DNA of 49,694 nt from an uncultured Pseudomonadota bacterium (lineage in GTDB: Bacteria > Pseudomonadota > Alphaproteobacteria > Rs-D84): contig CAMZFU010000003.1 in assembly GCA_947306185.1 (NCBI GenBank), positions 1 to 49,694 on the forward strand. The letters are read 5' to 3'. Positions 1 to 49,204 of the stretch are shown here, piece by piece; the stretch's first letter is position 1; every line of letters begins with the position of its first letter. The notes under the pieces are model-generated. The model had not been told where the DNA came from and ran no database searches. It saw nothing but the letters and a program-made list of their open reading frames with translations. The translations under genes and the position numbers were made by a program.

Positions 1-46
1 AGATAGACTTGGGTGACTGGAGTTCAGACGTGTGCTCTTCCGATCT
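1..46 (+). other. Illumina TruSeq P7/read-2 adapter remnant (artefact, not genomic)
   Basis: AGAT (end of P7) + 8-nt index AGACTTGG + GTGACTGGAGTTCAGACGTGTGCTCTTCCGATCT at 13-46, the exact TruSeq indexed-adapter sequence. Confidence 0.98.
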
Positions 47-796
47 GCATTGTTTACGGGTGCAAGCGATTATAACGCATCCGAAGACGCGGATAAACTA
101 ATCACAGCATCCGCATTAAAAAAAGCATTAACATTACCTGAAACTGATACGACGACATTGGAATGTGCGAATCCGTCGGACGGTTGTACATTATGGACAA
201 TCGTTGATCAAACGGCATACGGCGAAACGATAACATTGCCCGCGGGATATACACGTTTGGAATATATTCAGTCAAGTGGCGAACAATGGATTGATACGGG
301 GGTGAAACTTGCAAGTACGGATGTTGTCAGTGCTAATTTTAGAAATCTCACTAACACTGAATTTGGAGCATTATATGGTGTTTATCAAATGGGACAATCT
401 AGTGCCTTTTATGCAAGTGGAACATACTATGGATATAATGCAGAAAACGGAAAACTTGATACAAATATAGTTGTAGACACAAATTGGCATTCGGTGACAC
501 ACGATTTTCTTAATGGAAAATTGATTGTTGATGATACCACTGTACCATTTAGTGTTTTTGCGTTTAATAATGATGTGAACAATCATCTGTTTGCAAGGTA
601 TTATAACGGCTCTTATGGTTATTATTTCAAAGGGGGGGTAAAACAATATAAAATCACAAGAAACGGTAATATCATTTTGAATCTTATCCCGGCTAAAAAC
701 AGTTCCAATGAAATCGGTATGTACGATACCTTCAGTGGTCAATTCTTTAGGAATCAGGGAAGCGGTACCTTTACCGCCGGCCCAGAAATTAATTAA
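47..796 (+). CDS. 5'-truncated putative surface protein with C-terminal lectin/concanavalin-like (phage-tail-like) module; paralog of 33736-34686
   Basis: Frame is open from the adapter junction, and the listed start MLFRS is adapter-derived. Shares LPxGYTxLEYIxSxGxQxIxT and IPA..S..GMYDTxSxxFFxNQGxGxFTAGP motifs with the 33736-34686 product. The fold call is inference. Confidence 0.7.
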   Translation, partial: ALFTGASDYNASEDADKLITASALKKALTLPETDTTTLECANPSDGCTLWTIVDQTAYGETITLPAGYTRLEYIQSSGEQWIDTGVKLASTDVVSANFRNLTNTEFGALYGVYQMGQSSAFYASGTYYGYNAENGKLDTNIVVDTNWHSVTHDFLNGKLIVDDTTVPFSVFAFNNDVNNHLFARYYNGSYGYYFKGGVKQYKITRNGNIILNLIPAKNSSNEIGMYDTFSGQFFRNQGSGTFTAGPEIN

Positions 797-1324: not shown

Positions 1325-2392
1325 TCAGATTATATTACTTACACCCCCATCAGTGCAAGAAACAAATATTGCATCTGGGACACCGATAAAAACATCGCTG
1401 TCTATGCCGGTTGCCCAAACTTGAGCCTGGGCGGCACCAAGTTCAGAAAATAATTTTTCACGTGCATTTTTATCAAGGTGTGCAACCGCTTCGTCCAATA
1501 ATATTATTGGGTTCGCCCCTGTTTTCGTGTGAACAAGTTTTGCGTGTGCCAGTATAAGGTTTAATAAGGTTGTCTTTTGTTGGCCGGTGCTAGTTAAATT
1601 CGCAGGCAGATTTAATACCATATTAAATACACCAAAATCAGATTTAGTTACCCCATCTAAAATCATTTTGTCATTTATTAATACACGATTAGATTTCAGG
1701 TATGTTAAATAATTACGTTCTGCATCGGCGGCATTTGTCGCCAAAATCATAGATTCAACCAGACCTTCAACAGATACCGCCGCATCAGATAAAAAATAAT
1801 TTATTTCGCCGGCATATTGAATACGTGCGGCGGCAATTGCAACGGCGGTTGATGCAATTTGGTCATCAAGTGCATCAATCCATTTGTCGTCTGCACCATT
1901 TTTTAATGCGCCGGCCCTTTCGGTCAAAAGTTTTGCGTGACGTGCAATGCGACCCGCATGTGCAGAATCAAAACTTGCGGCCAATCGGTCAAAAAACGCG
2001 CGCCGTTCTGATGCCCCTTCGGTAAAGATTCTGTCTTCGCGTGGGGTAATCCATACTATGCGCAGGTGTTTTGCCAAATCCGAAAGGTTCGCATTATCAC
2101 CGTCTATTTTTGCATGGCGGTTTGTATCGCCCGAATTAAAATATACGGACAATTCGGTGTCATCATTTGTGCACGCAAAGACGGAAAAACCACCGTTCCC
2201 ATTAAACTGTGCAATTTCACCCATTGGTGCACCACGCATACCACGATCACCGGCAAGCATAGACACGGCCTCTAATATTGCGGTTTTACCTGCACCATTT
2301 GCCCCAGTAATGATAATATTCTTGTGACCACCCGTTTCGATACGCGTGGATTTATGATTTCTAAAATCTGTAAGTGTCAGGTTTGTAATCAT
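1325..2392 (-). CDS. recF: DNA replication/repair protein RecF
   Basis: LTDFRNH N-terminus, Walker A GANGAGKT, STGQQK signature, ILLDEAVAHLD. Confidence 0.95.
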   Translation of the reverse strand: MITNLTLTDFRNHKSTRIETGGHKNIIITGANGAGKTAILEAVSMLAGDRGMRGAPMGEIAQFNGNGGFSVFACTNDDTELSVYFNSGDTNRHAKIDGDNANLSDLAKHLRIVWITPREDRIFTEGASERRAFFDRLAASFDSAHAGRIARHAKLLTERAGALKNGADDKWIDALDDQIASTAVAIAAARIQYAGEINYFLSDAAVSVEGLVESMILATNAADAERNYLTYLKSNRVLINDKMILDGVTKSDFGVFNMVLNLPANLTSTGQQKTTLLNLILAHAKLVHTKTGANPIILLDEAVAHLDKNAREKLFSELGAAQAQVWATGIDSDVFIGVPDAIFVSCTDGGVSNII

Positions 2393-2718: not shown

Positions 2719-3912
2719 ATGGAAAATATGAACGGGCAACCACACCAATATTTTATTAAACGTGTATTTATATTTTTATGGCGCCATAAATGGTGGTCTT
2801 TGATTGTGATAGTAATTTTATGTTCGCTAATTATATGGTGGATTATATCGGTATACACGAATAGGATTGAATATGTAACACTAAATATATCACGGGGCGA
2901 TATGAGATATGTTGTTACCGCCACAGGCGAAATAAACCCAGTAAATACGGTTAGTGTCGGTTCCCAGGTGTCGGGTACAATTCAAGAAATTGCCGTGGAT
3001 TACAATTCGCGCGTAAAAAAGGGCGATTTATTGTTAACTATTGAACCGTCTGTGTTACAGGCATCTGTTGATGAATCGCGTGCGGCATTGGATGCGGCGC
3101 AATCTAAATTAAATCTTGCTAAAAATAATTATGAACGGGACAGCACGCTGTATAAAGATGGTTTCATTGCCCGTGCCGAAATGGAAGAATCCCAGGCAAA
3201 TTATGAACAGGCAATCCAAATGGTAAAACAGGCCGAATCACAATATGAACGGGCGGTAACAAACCTTGGGTATGCAACGATTACATCGCCGGTTGATGGA
3301 ACTGTTATCGCGCGCAAGGTGGATAAAGGGCAAACTGTTGCGGCATCTTTCCAAACCCCAGATTTATTCGAAATTGCCGAAGATTTATCAAAAATGCAAA
3401 TTGAAACCGCGGTGTCAGAGGCCGACATTGGTGTTATTCACGAAGGCCAAAATGTAACCTTTACCGTTGATGCATATCCACAAAAGAAATTTAATGGTGT
3501 TGTCCGGCAAATACGCCTTTCACCGACCACAACATCGAATGTTGTTGTGTATACTGTGGTGATTGATGTTGATAATGCTGATTTAAGTCTTATGCCTGGA
3601 ATGACCGCATTTGTGACGATACTTATCTCTGAGGCCAAAGATGTATGGAAAACACAAAATGCCGCTTTTTTAGTTCGTGATTATAAAAATATAATTCAAG
3701 ATATGAAGGAAGATGTAAAACCATCAGAAAAATTGGCAATTCTGCGTGAACGAAAAATCGTCTATATACCGTATACCAAGGGTTTGACCACCGCAACCGA
3801 AACACAAATTGTGTCTGATGAAATAAAAAATGGCGACCGCGTAATTGTTGGACGTGTCGGCCAATCGGCAAGTTCATCTGCAACCCAGGCACGTCGTCGC
3901 GGACCAATGTAA
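2719..3912 (+). CDS. MacA-like periplasmic adaptor (membrane fusion protein) of an ABC/RND efflux system
   Basis: N-terminal TM segment, VSVGSQVSG.I..VDYNS.VKKG, ITSPVDGTVI, GQTVAASFQTP.LF.IA.DL, LMPGMTA. Confidence 0.92.
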   Translation: MENMNGQPHQYFIKRVFIFLWRHKWWSLIVIVILCSLIIWWIISVYTNRIEYVTLNISRGDMRYVVTATGEINPVNTVSVGSQVSGTIQEIAVDYNSRVKKGDLLLTIEPSVLQASVDESRAALDAAQSKLNLAKNNYERDSTLYKDGFIARAEMEESQANYEQAIQMVKQAESQYERAVTNLGYATITSPVDGTVIARKVDKGQTVAASFQTPDLFEIAEDLSKMQIETAVSEADIGVIHEGQNVTFTVDAYPQKKFNGVVRQIRLSPTTTSNVVVYTVVIDVDNADLSLMPGMTAFVTILISEAKDVWKTQNAAFLVRDYKNIIQDMKEDVKPSEKLAILRERKIVYIPYTKGLTTATETQIVSDEIKNGDRVIVGRVGQSASSSATQARRRGPM

Positions 3913-33735: not shown

Positions 33736-34686
33736 TTAATTTCCACTGGGGATATAAACATCTAAATCAGGGCCAGCAGTGAATTCCCCAGCCCCCTGAT
33801 TTGTAAAGAACGTATTACTAACCGTATCATACATACCCAATTTGCTATCACTATTGCGACGCGCCGGTATCATACTACGAACCAAAACATTATTTATATT
33901 TAAAGCAAATTTATATATTTTACCACGCACAATAGAAAGACCTTGCGTCACTGAACCATTATACCCCCCAAGTGCAAATATCATACACACTGATTTGTTT
34001 TGATTTAATCCACCCCAACTTGTGGTATTTCCTAATTGATTGTTTACATATAAAGTTTCTCTATAATTTTCATAGTTTATAACTATGTTATCCTTATTCC
34101 CAGTAAGTAGCTGTGTCGTACCACCTTGTTTAACACTATAATAACCTGAGACATATAATTGCATAAACGCATTTGCACCAACCCACCCATTATCGTTAGT
34201 ACTAAACTGTGCAACCATATCCATTCTGGCATTATCAGATTTGTTTATCCAAGTATTAGTATTAATATACTGTGTACCCGTACTCTCTATATATTCCAAT
34301 GCGGTGTATCCGGTTGGTAATATTTGTTGTGGCGATGTGTTTTTAATCTGCCATATTAAACACGTGCCGTCGGTATCCCAATCAATACAAATAAATTCGT
34401 TTTCCAATGCATTGTTAATTCCGGTGTTTGCGTCACCGGCCGTCACAAGTGATGAATATTGTGACACAAAATCGCCGCTAGAATCGTATACACCTTTTTC
34501 GCCGATATTACCCACGGTTCCCGTATGTGTTATTACCGTGTTATTATCAACCGCCGGGATTTTATCCTGTTTCGTCGCAAGTTCAGTATCAACATAGTTT
34601 TTCGATGTTATGGTTTTATCACCCGTTGCAAAAGCATTGGTGCAAATTATTGCAACAATTCCAATGATGTATAATAACTTTCTCAT
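33736..34686 (-). CDS. Secreted surface protein with C-terminal lectin-like module; paralog of 47-796
   Basis: Signal peptide (..CTNAFA|T), DKTITSKNYVD..L.TKQ, C.DW...TC..W, LPTGYTALEYIESTGTQYINT, GMYDTVSNTFFTNQGAGEFTAGP. Confidence 0.8.
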   Translation of the reverse strand: MRKLLYIIGIVAIICTNAFATGDKTITSKNYVDTELATKQDKIPAVDNNTVITHTGTVGNIGEKGVYDSSGDFVSQYSSLVTAGDANTGINNALENEFICIDWDTDGTCLIWQIKNTSPQQILPTGYTALEYIESTGTQYINTNTWINKSDNARMDMVAQFSTNDNGWVGANAFMQLYVSGYYSVKQGGTTQLLTGNKDNIVINYENYRETLYVNNQLGNTTSWGGLNQNKSVCMIFALGGYNGSVTQGLSIVRGKIYKFALNINNVLVRSMIPARRNSDSKLGMYDTVSNTFFTNQGAGEFTAGPDLDVYIPSGN

Positions 34687-34689
34687 GAG

Positions 34690-34708
34690 CCCCCCCCAAA
34701 AAAAAAAA
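34690..34708 (-). repeat. T11-G8 homopolymer pair 3 nt upstream of the start codon
   Basis: Plus strand C8 (34690-34697) and A11 (34698-34708); minus strand reads T11-G8-CTC-ATG. Confidence 0.9.
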
Positions 34709-34730
34709 TTGCAAAAATTGAACCGCCAAT

Positions 34731-34914
34731 GGAAATTGACGGTCGGGGTGTTCGAAAATCATAAAACACAATGACTCCGATGGCCTTTATATATACACCA
34801 CCGGCACCCCGACATTTCGGGGGTGTAATGACGATGCAAAACATGAAAATCCGATGGATTACGATGCCTTGCACCGGTGTTTTATGGGCTTTCGACAGCC
34901 CCAAACCAAATTCC
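34731..34914 (-). ncRNA. Structured 5' leader with C4/CI-antisense-like architecture
   Basis: Mutually exclusive stems: 34742-34750 with 34805-34813 (9 of 9 bp); 34760-34769 with 34877-34886 (10 of 10 bp); 34752-34757 with 34890-34895; internal direct repeats. Confidence 0.55.
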
Positions 34915-34931
34915 CATCTGGTTCGCTTTTC

Positions 34932-34961
34932 ATTATATCAAAAACGAGATTTTTTATGCAA
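34932..34961 (-). promoter_or_regulatory. Sigma70-type promoter for the leader and surface gene
   Basis: Minus strand TTGCAT-N18-TATAAT. Confidence 0.6.
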
Positions 34962-35025
34962 TTGATTTTTTATTGTTCTTGAATTTTGCTATATGTTTGC
35001 TATTCTTGTGCCAAAAGGAAGATGC

Positions 35026-36558
35026 ATGGATACGAATTATACTGTTTTAGCACGAAAATACCGCAGTCAAGATTTTCAATCACTTATCGGCCAAGATGTT
35101 TTGGTCAAAACTTTAACAACCGCAATTAAAACGGGGCGTATCGCACATGCGTATATATTTACCGGGATTCGTGGAACCGGAAAAACCAGTACTGCGCGTA
35201 TTTTGGCCAAGGCATTAAATTGTTTGTCTTCGGATGGCCCAACGGCAACGCCATGTGGTACATGCGAAAATTGTCGTGCTATTGCCGCCGGACAGCATAT
35301 TGACGTTTTGGAAATCGACGCGGCTTCTCATACCGGGGTTGATAATATGCGCGAAATATTAGATGCCGCGCAATATCGTCCAACAAATGGCCGTTACAAA
35401 GTTTATATAATCGACGAAGTCCATATGCTTTCCACCAGTGCGTTTAACGCATTGCTTAAAACATTAGAAGAACCGCCTGCACATGTAATCTTTATTTTGG
35501 CGACAACCGAAATACGGAAAGTTCCGGTAACGATTCTTTCGCGTTGCCAACGCTTTGATTTGGTTCGCGTGCCGGTTGATATACTTAAAAAACATTTTGC
35601 GTGGATTGCCGAACAAGAACAGGTTGAATTAACCGATGCGGCAAATGAATTATTGGCACGTGCGGCCGATGGTTCTGTGCGTGATGGGTTGTCTTTGTTG
35701 GACCAGGCGATTGCGCAGACCGGGGGGCACGTTGATGAAAATGCCGTTATGGATATGTTGAAACGTGCCGACCGTGGCGTGGTTGTTGATTTTATGCAAA
35801 CAATATTGTCGGGAAATGTCGCAACCGCAATGGCCAAGGCAGACGAGATTTACACTAATGGCGCAGATTTAACAATGCTGCTTACTGATATGATGGAATG
35901 GACACATTGGGCAACACGTATGCATCCCGTGTTGCACGCCGGCGAAAGCAGTAATATTCCATACACCGCCGATCAACGTGCACGCATAAATGAAATAAAC
36001 AAGCACGTATCGTTGAATACACTTTCCAGAATATGGCAGGTAATGGTTGCAGCGGTTCCAGAAATGGCCGCAGCATCAAATCAAAAGCAATGTTTTGATA
36101 TGCTAATTGTGCGGTTGATGCATATTGCAGATATGCCGTCTTTACCAGAAATGTTAAAGTCAGAAAAAGTTGACATGCCACGTGTACCACAGCAATCTGC
36201 ACCGGTAAAAAACGAAACTGTTCAGATTAAAACAGCAGCGGACCTGGCGGATTTGTTAAAGAACGCGCGTGAAATTATGCTTTATTCATATTTTACCAAG
36301 AACATAGAAGTTTGTGATATTAATGGCAATTGCATATCTTTCTTTGATCGTGGTAATGACGCGGATTTCCAAAAGAAATTATCATCATGGTTGAATACGA
36401 AAACCAATGAAAATTGGGAAGTGATTAAGGTCGAAGAATCGCATCAAAATCAAACAGTTCGTGAACAGATTGAAACAGATGTGGAATCTGATCCGATGGT
36501 CGCAGATGCAATGTCTTTGTTTGAAGGTGCCGAAATTGTCGGTATATCAAAACAATAA
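35026..36558 (+). CDS. dnaX: DNA polymerase III subunit gamma/tau (start at MDTNY)
   Basis: LARKYR, GIRGTGKTS.ARI, CGTCENC, EIDAAS, IDEVHMLS, LLKTLEEPP, SRC. Confidence 0.97.
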   Translation: MDTNYTVLARKYRSQDFQSLIGQDVLVKTLTTAIKTGRIAHAYIFTGIRGTGKTSTARILAKALNCLSSDGPTATPCGTCENCRAIAAGQHIDVLEIDAASHTGVDNMREILDAAQYRPTNGRYKVYIIDEVHMLSTSAFNALLKTLEEPPAHVIFILATTEIRKVPVTILSRCQRFDLVRVPVDILKKHFAWIAEQEQVELTDAANELLARAADGSVRDGLSLLDQAIAQTGGHVDENAVMDMLKRADRGVVVDFMQTILSGNVATAMAKADEIYTNGADLTMLLTDMMEWTHWATRMHPVLHAGESSNIPYTADQRARINEINKHVSLNTLSRIWQVMVAAVPEMAAASNQKQCFDMLIVRLMHIADMPSLPEMLKSEKVDMPRVPQQSAPVKNETVQIKTAADLADLLKNAREIMLYSYFTKNIEVCDINGNCISFFDRGNDADFQKKLSSWLNTKTNENWEVIKVEESHQNQTVREQIETDVESDPMVADAMSLFEGAEIVGISKQ

Positions 36559-48291: not shown

Positions 48292-49204
48292 CTTTTTTAC
48301 CTGTGGTCTCGTTTAATATTGCATTACGCAATTTGTTATAAGCTCGCTCTTCAATTTGCCGGACACGTTCGCGTGAAATATTATATTTCTTAGACAGCAT
48401 CTCTAATGTTGCCGCCGGATCACTAAGACGGCGCGCCTTTAATATTTCACGGTCGCGTTCAGGTAATTCCGCCAAGTGTTTGCGTAACAATTCGCCACCG
48501 CGTGTCATCATTTCATGCTGTTCGCTTTTTTCAATTATGCCGACATTGTTGTCTGCCATATTGGCCAGCATATCAGAACCTTCTTGTTCGGTTGTGCGTG
48601 CCGGCGAATTCAACGATAAATCACGCGCCACGATTCGTGTGGACATACGTTTAACATCTTCGGCAGGTACACTAAGGTATTCTGCGATTTTATCCGCCTG
48701 TTCATCAGAAAGGTTCCCATCCATAATACCCAATGCACGTTTCGCCCGGGCCAGGTTAAAGAACACACGTTTTTGATTTGCGGATGTCCCGATTTTTACA
48801 ATGGACCAATTATTCAATATTGTTTCATATATTTCGGCGCGAATCCAGAACATGGCATAGGTTGAAAACCGAAAACCGCGTTCCGGGTCAAATTTCTGCA
48901 ATGCCTGCATCAGCCCCATATTGCCACTTGCCACCAATTCTTGAACTGGGATTCCATAATTACGGAAATCATATGCCACCGATACAACAAGGCGCAAATG
49001 GCTAACCAGTAATTTTTCGGCGGCGTTTTGATCTTTGTCTTGAACCCATTTTGTAGCATATTCGTATTCTTGTTCTGCAGAAAGTATTGGATATTGGCTA
49101 ATTGCACGAATATAACTGGCCAATCCACCTTCGTCACCATATGTTGGTATGGCAATAGGTTTTTCTGATTTTGATACTAATGCGTTCTTGATTTGCTTTT
49201 TCAT
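48281..49204 (-). CDS. rpoH: RNA polymerase sigma-32 factor RpoH
   Basis: SHLRLVV.VA, GLMQA..KFDPERGFRFSTYA.FWIRA, RpoH box WSIVKIGT.ANQKRVFFNL, ISRERVRQIE. Confidence 0.94.
   Translation of the reverse strand: MKKQIKNALVSKSEKPIAIPTYGDEGGLASYIRAISQYPILSAEQEYEYATKWVQDKDQNAAEKLLVSHLRLVVSVAYDFRNYGIPVQELVASGNMGLMQALQKFDPERGFRFSTYAMFWIRAEIYETILNNWSIVKIGTSANQKRVFFNLARAKRALGIMDGNLSDEQADKIAEYLSVPAEDVKRMSTRIVARDLSLNSPARTTEQEGSDMLANMADNNVGIIEKSEQHEMMTRGGELLRKHLAELPERDREILKARRLSDPAATLEMLSKKYNISRERVRQIEERAYNKLRNAILNETTGKKDDK

Follow-up and report, generated by a model that had tools for sequence, protein, structure and literature searches.

The window analyzed here, by which we mean the whole 49,694-nucleotide stretch of contig CAMZFU010000003.1 from an uncultured alphaproteobacterium, contains a divergent intergenic region at positions 34687-35025. 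On one side lies dnaX on the plus strand, whose product carries the Pfam domains DNA_pol3_delta2 and gamma3. On the other side, on the minus strand, an open reading frame running from 34686 to 33736 specifies a protein of 316 amino acids. The dnaX start is most likely the ATG at 35026 (+) (MDTNYTVLARKYR, with AAGGAAG before it), not the first in-frame ATG at 34993. The neighbors of the locus in the window are the core genes dnaX, infB, and nusA. The preliminary description of this DNA had proposed that a phage RNA switch was domesticated here, with no phage gene nearby. With core genes as neighbors and a gene for a secreted protein downstream, the word “domesticated” is fair.

The 316-residue protein begins with a signal peptide (MRKLLYIIGIVAIICTNAFA) and ends in a concanavalin/LamG-like beta-sandwich. 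Sequence searches of Pfam, PHROGs, and the PDB return no match for it, and its 505 homologs are all unannotated and come from metagenome-assembled genomes labeled Alphaproteobacteria. In the AlphaFold model, pLDDT exceeds 90 over most of residues 120-310, and the C-terminal beta-sandwich is predicted with confidence; among PDB structures it best resembles LNS (LamG) domains of neurexin/agrin and a carbohydrate-binding protein from Bacteroides (E ~1e-3). The protein could reasonably be a surface or secreted binding protein, and the earlier label “adhesin” goes beyond the evidence. The protein belongs to a large family of secreted proteins, 310-330 residues long, that carry DKTITSKxYV..KQDKIPA as an N-terminal motif and end in a LamG-like domain; at least six paralogs exist in this genome. 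ORF 32-796 (+), the 47-796 gene of the preliminary description, is a paralog truncated at its 5' end that shares the C-terminal LamG-like domain. Any leader of that ORF would lie off the contig, and positions 1-46 are Illumina adapter (..GTGACTGGAGTTCAGACGTGTGCTCTTCCGATCT), an assembly contamination at the contig end. A second contig, C1, breaks off after a leader and 36 codons of a paralog, and it does not overlap the window contig.

Upstream of the 316-residue ORF, the minus strand specifies a leader of approximately 240 nt that extends from ~34926 to the ATG at 34686; all leader coordinates below refer to this strand. The promoter (34932-34961) comprises a -35 element TTGCAT at 34961-34956, an 18-nt spacer, and TATAAT at 34937-34932, and both the coordinates and the strings previously given for it and for the leader are correct. 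The -10 hexamer is perfect and has TG before it, giving the extended -10 element TGaTATAAT (34940-34932). The -35 element matches TTGACA at only three of six positions, which is why a consensus scan skipped this promoter. A -10-like hexamer lies at a constant offset upstream of the conserved RNA start in most family copies, and sequence conservation among the copies begins just downstream of that hexamer. These features place the predicted transcription start near 34926.

The 5' domain of the leader consists of three hairpins and the sites they display. Hairpin P1 (34903-34924; GAACCAGA-TGGGAA-TTTGGTTT) carries a GGGA-type loop and is part of the RNAalifold consensus, in which positions 9-12 pair with 21-24 and keep their pairing through two-sided changes in 4-14 sequences. 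Hairpin P2 (34886-34902; GGGGC...GCCC) follows; the GGGCT/AGCCC complementarity of the leader is its stem, and its loop holds the first address site, a1 (TCGAAAG, 34895-34889). Next come the second address site, b1 (CATAAAACAC, 34877-34886), and P3 (34826-34876), a long spacer hairpin of variable length that is taken from the minimum free energy fold and whose consensus pairs, 60-65 with 78-83, covary. The duplicated GCATCGT reflects the two arms of P3, and the other duplication reported in the leader, that of CCATCGGA, is also present. The domain ends with A (CCCCCGA, 34817-34823), which mimics a later segment, C, and forms a local hairpin with the intervening segment B.

The central feature is a 73-nt unit resembling c4 and sRNA-Xcc1 RNAs at 34741-34813, which is identified by its folding z score, by its match to a covariance model that we call R1, and by a sub-threshold match to Rfam RF02221. 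R1 represents the unit plus terminator, that is, the 3' part only, and was built from 31 alphaproteobacterial copies; it scores the window copy at 101.6 bits. The unit is closed by a perfect 9-bp stem between B (GTCGGGGTG, 34813-34805) as the 5' arm and C (CACCCCGAC, 34750-34742) as the 3' arm, exactly as first described. Inside lie a first hairpin, H1 (34804-34777), a second hairpin, H2 (34775-34758), and two segments complementary to the upstream sites: b' (GTGTTTTATG, 34769-34760), carried by H2, and a' (TTTTCGA, 34758-34752). Immediately after the unit is an intrinsic terminator (34712-34744) that is absent from the earlier description of the leader. A terminator scan reports its stem-loop as GACCGTCAATTTCCATTGGCGGTT, with the stem at 34744-34721, and its T-rich tail as CAATTTTTGC / CAATTTTTG. 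The RNA from promoter to terminator is ~215 nt, and the terminator ends 25 nt before the ribosome site. Directly before the ATG region, at 34690-34708, are a T11 run (34708-34698) and a G8 run (34697-34690), the latter being the only Shine-Dalgarno-like sequence before the ATG of the 316-residue gene. The T11-G8 tract is a candidate slipped-strand site and might also pair with the C-rich runs A and C; at this position, the G run of the paralog leaders is G5-G6.

Several measures establish the RNA structure. The 73-nt unit folds at -33.2 kcal/mol with z = -5.85, and 0 of 200 shuffles fold equally well; the whole leader has z = -5.65 against shuffles. In 31 full-length copies, RNAalifold recovers a consensus of P1, P2, P3, B:C, H1, H2, and the terminator. 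Covariation had been proposed as a check on the structure, and the helices do covary: 27 of 48 consensus pairs in the 31 copies are kept with compensatory two-sided changes. In a broader set of 66 units, aligned by fitting to R1, 97.6% of cells are paired versus 38-51% with the partners slid, two-sided change occurs at 20 of 24 pairs, and no shuffle out of 500 matches these figures; the fitting of the alignment to the model is a caveat to these counts. The terminator helix (helix 4) is 95% paired in these units, again with changes on both sides, and a tail of at least five T residues is present in 31 of 31 family copies. Three unpaired motifs are also conserved: the GGGA loop of P1, UAUAnAA..AAAG in H1, and GAUUU after H2. 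The P1 loop (GGGA; hairpin 34903-34924) and the terminator loop (UUCC; stem 34721-34744) are both conserved and mutually complementary, so an end-to-end kissing contact is possible; its statistics are weak, as cognate pairs are not better than non-cognate pairs (p = 0.09), and the excess over shuffles is small.

The leader is not confined to this locus. The assembly, of 1.05 Mb, 40% G+C, and 74% completeness, contains seven copies. Five are detectable by blastn at 73-81% identity. The sixth, on contig C24 (84.5 bits), is found only by the covariance model, and the seventh, at C1:72339 (29 bits), is divergent and precedes another paralog of the 316-residue protein. All seven carry a -10-like hexamer at a constant distance before the conserved RNA start, and the terminator of each is followed by an ORF in the same orientation. 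The preliminary description had suggested searching for the same leader before other paralogs, and five of the seven copies do precede paralogs of this one protein family. Beyond the assembly, 61 of 101 genomes of the taxonomic family give blastn matches to the leader, and R1 matches 35 of 301 genomes sampled across the class, representing 31 of 253 genera. In 31 of 33 copies, a co-oriented ORF with a ribosome site lies 10-120 nt downstream, and ~21 of these ORFs look secreted. Other downstream genes encode HTH regulators, glycosyltransferases, and, by eye, likely methyltransferases. Ribosome sites consisting of G-runs follow 21 of 33 leaders compared to 175 of 771 sites in a crude genome background (Fisher p ~1e-6); the enrichment is given as three to four times that crudely estimated background. 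The idea of a special switch for a single chromosomal adhesin must therefore be abandoned, as the leader is one of seven copies here and a member of a very large family with varied downstream genes. The leader family is absent from Rfam 15, and none of the papers found on sRNA-Xcc1, c4-a1b1, and Enterousia describes it.

What distinguishes one copy from another is the pair of address sites. In the window copy, b' pairs with b1 over 10 bp and a' with a1 over 7 bp (6 bp plus one G-U), and both pairings are conserved; a1 is complementary to a' in every listed copy. Among the 31 copies, the duplex between the segment from the P2 loop to b1 and the segment from b' to a' has an energy of -17.1 +/- 2.6 kcal/mol for cognate partners and -5.4 +/- 2.4 kcal/mol for non-cognate partners. 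The cognate partner ranks first in 31 of 31 cases (p = 2e-21), with two ties, both between orthologs, and a cognate advantage is likewise found in class-level copies (p = 4e-9). Among the five close paralogs of this genome, identity is 41% in the address columns compared to 79% across the remainder of the leader. Thus, the addresses turn over much faster than the scaffold yet stay complementary. Of the complementarities listed initially, b':b1 and a':a1 are real. A third, CCGGTG/CACCGG, is attributable to chance: it is kept only in the window copy, and CCGGTG serves as the 5' arm of H1.

The paired segments have no second set of partners. Downstream a2/b2 sites are not present in the window copy nor as a feature of the family: across the 31 copies, cognate and non-cognate downstream duplexes average -9.9 and -9.3 kcal/mol, and the ranks are scattered. 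With regard to targets in trans, exact composites of the a and b addresses of all seven copies occur in the sense strand of this genome only at each copy's own leader, trivial antisense-strand matches having been set aside. In a looser RNAduplex scan of the genome, the background is as strong as the true site. Given that neither a downstream a2/b2 pair nor a target in trans was found, the c4 mode of repression proper cannot apply. The rapid evolution of private addresses suggests that cross-talk between copies matters, and such pressure would leave room for a trans autoregulatory loop of the IsrK or P4 CI type, an idea against which the failure to find trans targets counts.

The closest catalogued relative of the unit is sRNA-Xcc1, an RNA known from Xanthomonas integron cassettes, prophages, and Xylella islands. 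RF02221, the sRNA-Xcc1 model, matches the window at 34734-34813(-) over its full length with 25.6 bits (E 0.044) and matches other family copies with 31-50.3 bits, all below the gathering threshold of 53; it is the sole Rfam family that recurs on the unit. In the other direction, a phylum-wide R1 search yields three matches outside the class, two of which are bona fide sRNA-Xcc1 RNAs (RF02221 scores of 69.9 and 56.5 bits). Thus, the R1 and RF02221 models find each other's members, and the two groups have a common fold, in which a G/C-rich stem encloses two hairpins, the first of them with a UAUA-type loop, and a U-rich linker leads into the 3' arm of that stem. By these sequence and model comparisons, the unit is a distant relative of sRNA-Xcc1. 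Both also reside just upstream of a co-oriented gene; sRNA-Xcc1 lies directly upstream of symE in Xanthomonas and of an ORF6N gene in APSE (PMC12444791, PMC7313666). The alphaproteobacterial form differs in that it always has the 5' domain (P1, P2/a1, b1, P3, and A) and an intrinsic terminator, lacks a2/b2, and is a chromosomal, multi-copy family located before secreted-protein genes. Two of the relatives outside the class show what the a2/b2-bearing layout looks like. Specifically, at L078 (the 69.9-bit match) the unit precedes a P22-type antirepressor gene (P22_AR_N), and at L079, which is matched by R1 and not by RF02221, it precedes a Bro-N-type antirepressor gene. By eye, both have a P2-like hairpin with a1, followed by b1, the unit, a2, and b2, with b2 abutting the ribosome site. 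Locus L078 also has a c4-2 match (RF02944; 34.8 bits, threshold 41) at 2901-2969 (-), 1.3 kb from the sRNA-Xcc1 that precedes the P22-type antirepressor. In Xylella, matches to C4, IsrK, and sRNA-Xcc1 occur in tandem within ~400 nt (PMC12189769).

The preliminary description had assigned the element to the phage C4/CI type, and this assignment survives in part. The hallmarks of C4 are a 77-nt RNA processed from its leader by RNase P and control of a phage antirepressor. In the phage P1 record, a1 is at 48255-61, b1 at 48269-76, c4 at 48343-48419, a2 at 48423-29, and b2 at 48452-59, with icd-ant following; the order is therefore promoter, a1, b1, spacer, c4 with b' before a', a2, b2, and icd. 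The P1/P7 c4 locus (RF01695) and the leader share the promoter, a1, b1, a spacer of ~65 nt, and a stem-closed RNA of 73-77 nt in which b' precedes a'. As in the C4 clan, two exposed segments, a' and b', are complementary to upstream a1 and b1 sites in the same transcript. By eye, phage P1 c4 and the element are also alike in having a C-rich segment just upstream that is capable of pairing with the closing stem's 5' arm. Unlike C4-clan members, the leader has no second sites, a2 and b2, over the ribosome site of the regulated gene; moreover, a terminator follows the unit, and the controlled gene is not an antirepressor. Nor do covariance models connect the two in either direction. The Rfam C4 and c4-2 models, the Infernal check suggested initially, give no match on 34500-35200 at E values up to 10, and none at the element in 20 + 20 + 12 related loci, while RF01695 detects phage P1 c4 at 68.8 bits as a control. 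R1 run against the phage P1 immI region with filters off does not match c4. The c4-a1b1 motif, reportedly described by Weinberg in 2010, has no Rfam model or accession. Because both R1 and the Rfam C4 models fail, the link between the element and phage P1 c4 runs only via sRNA-Xcc1 and architecture. The c4 analogy is sound with respect to architecture and distant homology, and formal membership in the C4 family fails.

IsrK, from the Gifsy-1 prophage (RF01394), and P4 CI offer a further comparison. In both systems, the leader RNA occurs on its own, as a short species made by termination or processing, and within a read-through transcript, and regulation occurs by pairing with sites in the transcript of the same locus and by alternative structures (PMC4825925). 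Specifically, the target of IsrK is its own read-through mRNA; P4 CI acts on transcription termination by pairing with seqA upstream and seqC downstream (PMC4825925). The present leader differs from both in having only upstream sites. The isrK model does not match the element, and among related loci it gives only an unrelated weak match.

The leader can adopt two folds. A is a copy of C, and both pair with B; A:B and B:C are therefore mutually exclusive. The A:B hairpin (CACCCCCGA..TCGGGGTG) is predicted in 66 of 66 units. In deviant copies, A, B, and C change together: they read CCAACC/GGTTGG/CCAACC in the seventh copy of this genome and GCCCGGC/GTCGGGC/CGCCCGAC in copy L022. Whether B is made to pair upstream or downstream makes a difference of only 4.2 +/- 5.1 kcal/mol within a total of ~-90 in the 31 copies, as computed with a nested model that excludes pseudoknots. 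In the A:B state, the nested model joins the 5' arm of P2, a1, and b1 into one long duplex with b', a', and C. Given that A:B is conserved and the energies are nearly equal, both folds appear to be under selection, which is the signature of a switch.

We lean toward the reading in which the element is a domesticated c4/sRNA-Xcc1-type leader that operates as a two-state switch in cis, at the terminator or at the ribosome site. In the first proposed fold, a1 and b1 would be engaged in the long duplex with b' and a', and B would be locked in a small hairpin with the C-mimic A. In the second, P2, H2, and the closing stem B:C would form the c4-like unit, and the C-rich segment A would be set free; once freed, A is predicted to be able to pair with the G-run ribosome site. 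The notion is that the balance between the folds sets either read-through past the terminator or access to the G-rich ribosome site, and that expression of the downstream gene would thereby be gated in cis. A candidate trigger would be the terminated leader RNA itself, which would act in trans on the a1/b1 sites of nascent transcripts in the manner of IsrK, or of P4 CI on seqA. We infer regulation by the leader, and the identity of the ON fold and of whatever shifts the balance is likewise conjectural. An intrinsic terminator between leader and ribosome site, combined with mutually exclusive conserved helices, is the arrangement of an intrinsic-terminator attenuator. Two observations bear on the possible outputs. 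First, B:C and the terminator stem share only 2-3 nt (“GAC”) and both constrained folds keep the terminator hairpin; given so small an overlap, neither fold clearly abolishes the terminator. Second, 12 of 33 copies have no G-run ribosome site, so pairing of A with the ribosome site is not a universal solution.

A bolder version of this scheme, to which we assign a low probability, is that each leader constitutes an RNA-only, address-coded “immunity” loop. The abundant terminated leader RNA would reach nascent transcripts of its own locus in trans, where it would compete with pairing in cis and bias the choice of fold. Trans action would be limited to the RNA's own locus because a1 and b1 are private. 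Each surface gene could then maintain its own state, OFF or ON, in a self-sustaining way, much as CI RNA enables a P4 prophage to do. If true, a 1-Mb genome would possess a set of switches for variable surface display that require no protein and are naturally orthogonal.

sRNA-Xcc1 was first described as a stand-alone small RNA acting in trans, and the leader could likewise be a small RNA gene whose targets are unlinked mRNAs or a protein, with its position before a gene being incidental or serving co-transfer. Most copies have their own promoter, and 31 of 31 have a terminator. At one locus, L009 (G060:C1:277279-280474), three units lie head to tail behind a single 5' domain at 1910-2210 (-), so tandem units exist without a 5' domain or gene of their own; the arrangement resembles the published sRNA-Xcc1 arrays of Xylella, which are expressed as discrete RNAs (PMC12189769). 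Countering this idea, 31 of 33 copies are located 10-120 nt before a co-oriented ORF, the exact a1-b1 composite occurs in the sense strand of this genome only in each unit's own leader, and the exposed segments are already occupied in cis. Nor does the G060 genome contain an a1/b1 partner for either of the two orphan units of L009. We consider a stand-alone small RNA improbable.

We judge it equally doubtful that the leader is a riboswitch-like or protein-dependent attenuator, in which a ligand, second messenger, or RNA-binding protein selects A:B versus B:C. Like terminator-type attenuators and riboswitches, the leader is a structured, promoter-proximal RNA in which mutually exclusive helices adjoin an intrinsic terminator placed ahead of the ribosome site. 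The conserved unpaired motifs in the P1 loop, in H1, and after H2 could suit such a role, as could the presence of many copies before surface genes, a pattern familiar from c-di-GMP riboswitches. However, the largest long-range contacts are hypervariable, copy-specific addresses, no conserved ligand pocket is evident, the switching helix overlaps the terminator only marginally, no Rfam riboswitch family matches, and the unit shares homology with RNAs of the antisense type, whose regulation works through base pairing. A DNA-level role, either as a MITE-like repeat or as a block of homology for recombination or gene conversion among surface-protein paralogs, might be suggested by seven repeats in ~1 Mb, five of them before paralogs of one protein family, but it is largely refuted and very improbable: the orientation to promoter and ORF is always the same, the position between them is fixed in 31 of 33 copies, neither terminal inverted repeats nor target duplications stood out in the alignment of the flanks, the RNA helices persist through compensatory changes, 73-81% identity with scrambled addresses is ill-suited to homologous recombination, and the same leader precedes unrelated genes.

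The c4, CI, IsrK, and sRNA-Xcc1 RNAs are known as curiosities of phages and islands that guard antirepressor or toxin genes. Here, a c4-type module without the downstream target and with a terminator added has become a general-purpose leader, located mostly before genes for secreted proteins and present in many copies per genome in gut species with tiny genomes. If the favored cis-acting switch is indeed regulatory, the family would constitute a major uncatalogued layer of gene control in uncultured gut Alphaproteobacteria, and it would explain the purpose of the upstream a1/b1 sites of c4. It would also provide a natural library of mutually orthogonal RNA switches, built on one scaffold with a 7 + 10-nt address per copy. 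Finally, the L009 array has two additional divergent units nearby, whose closing stems are of the GGTTGGAG type, and a related locus carries an alpha-type tmRNA.
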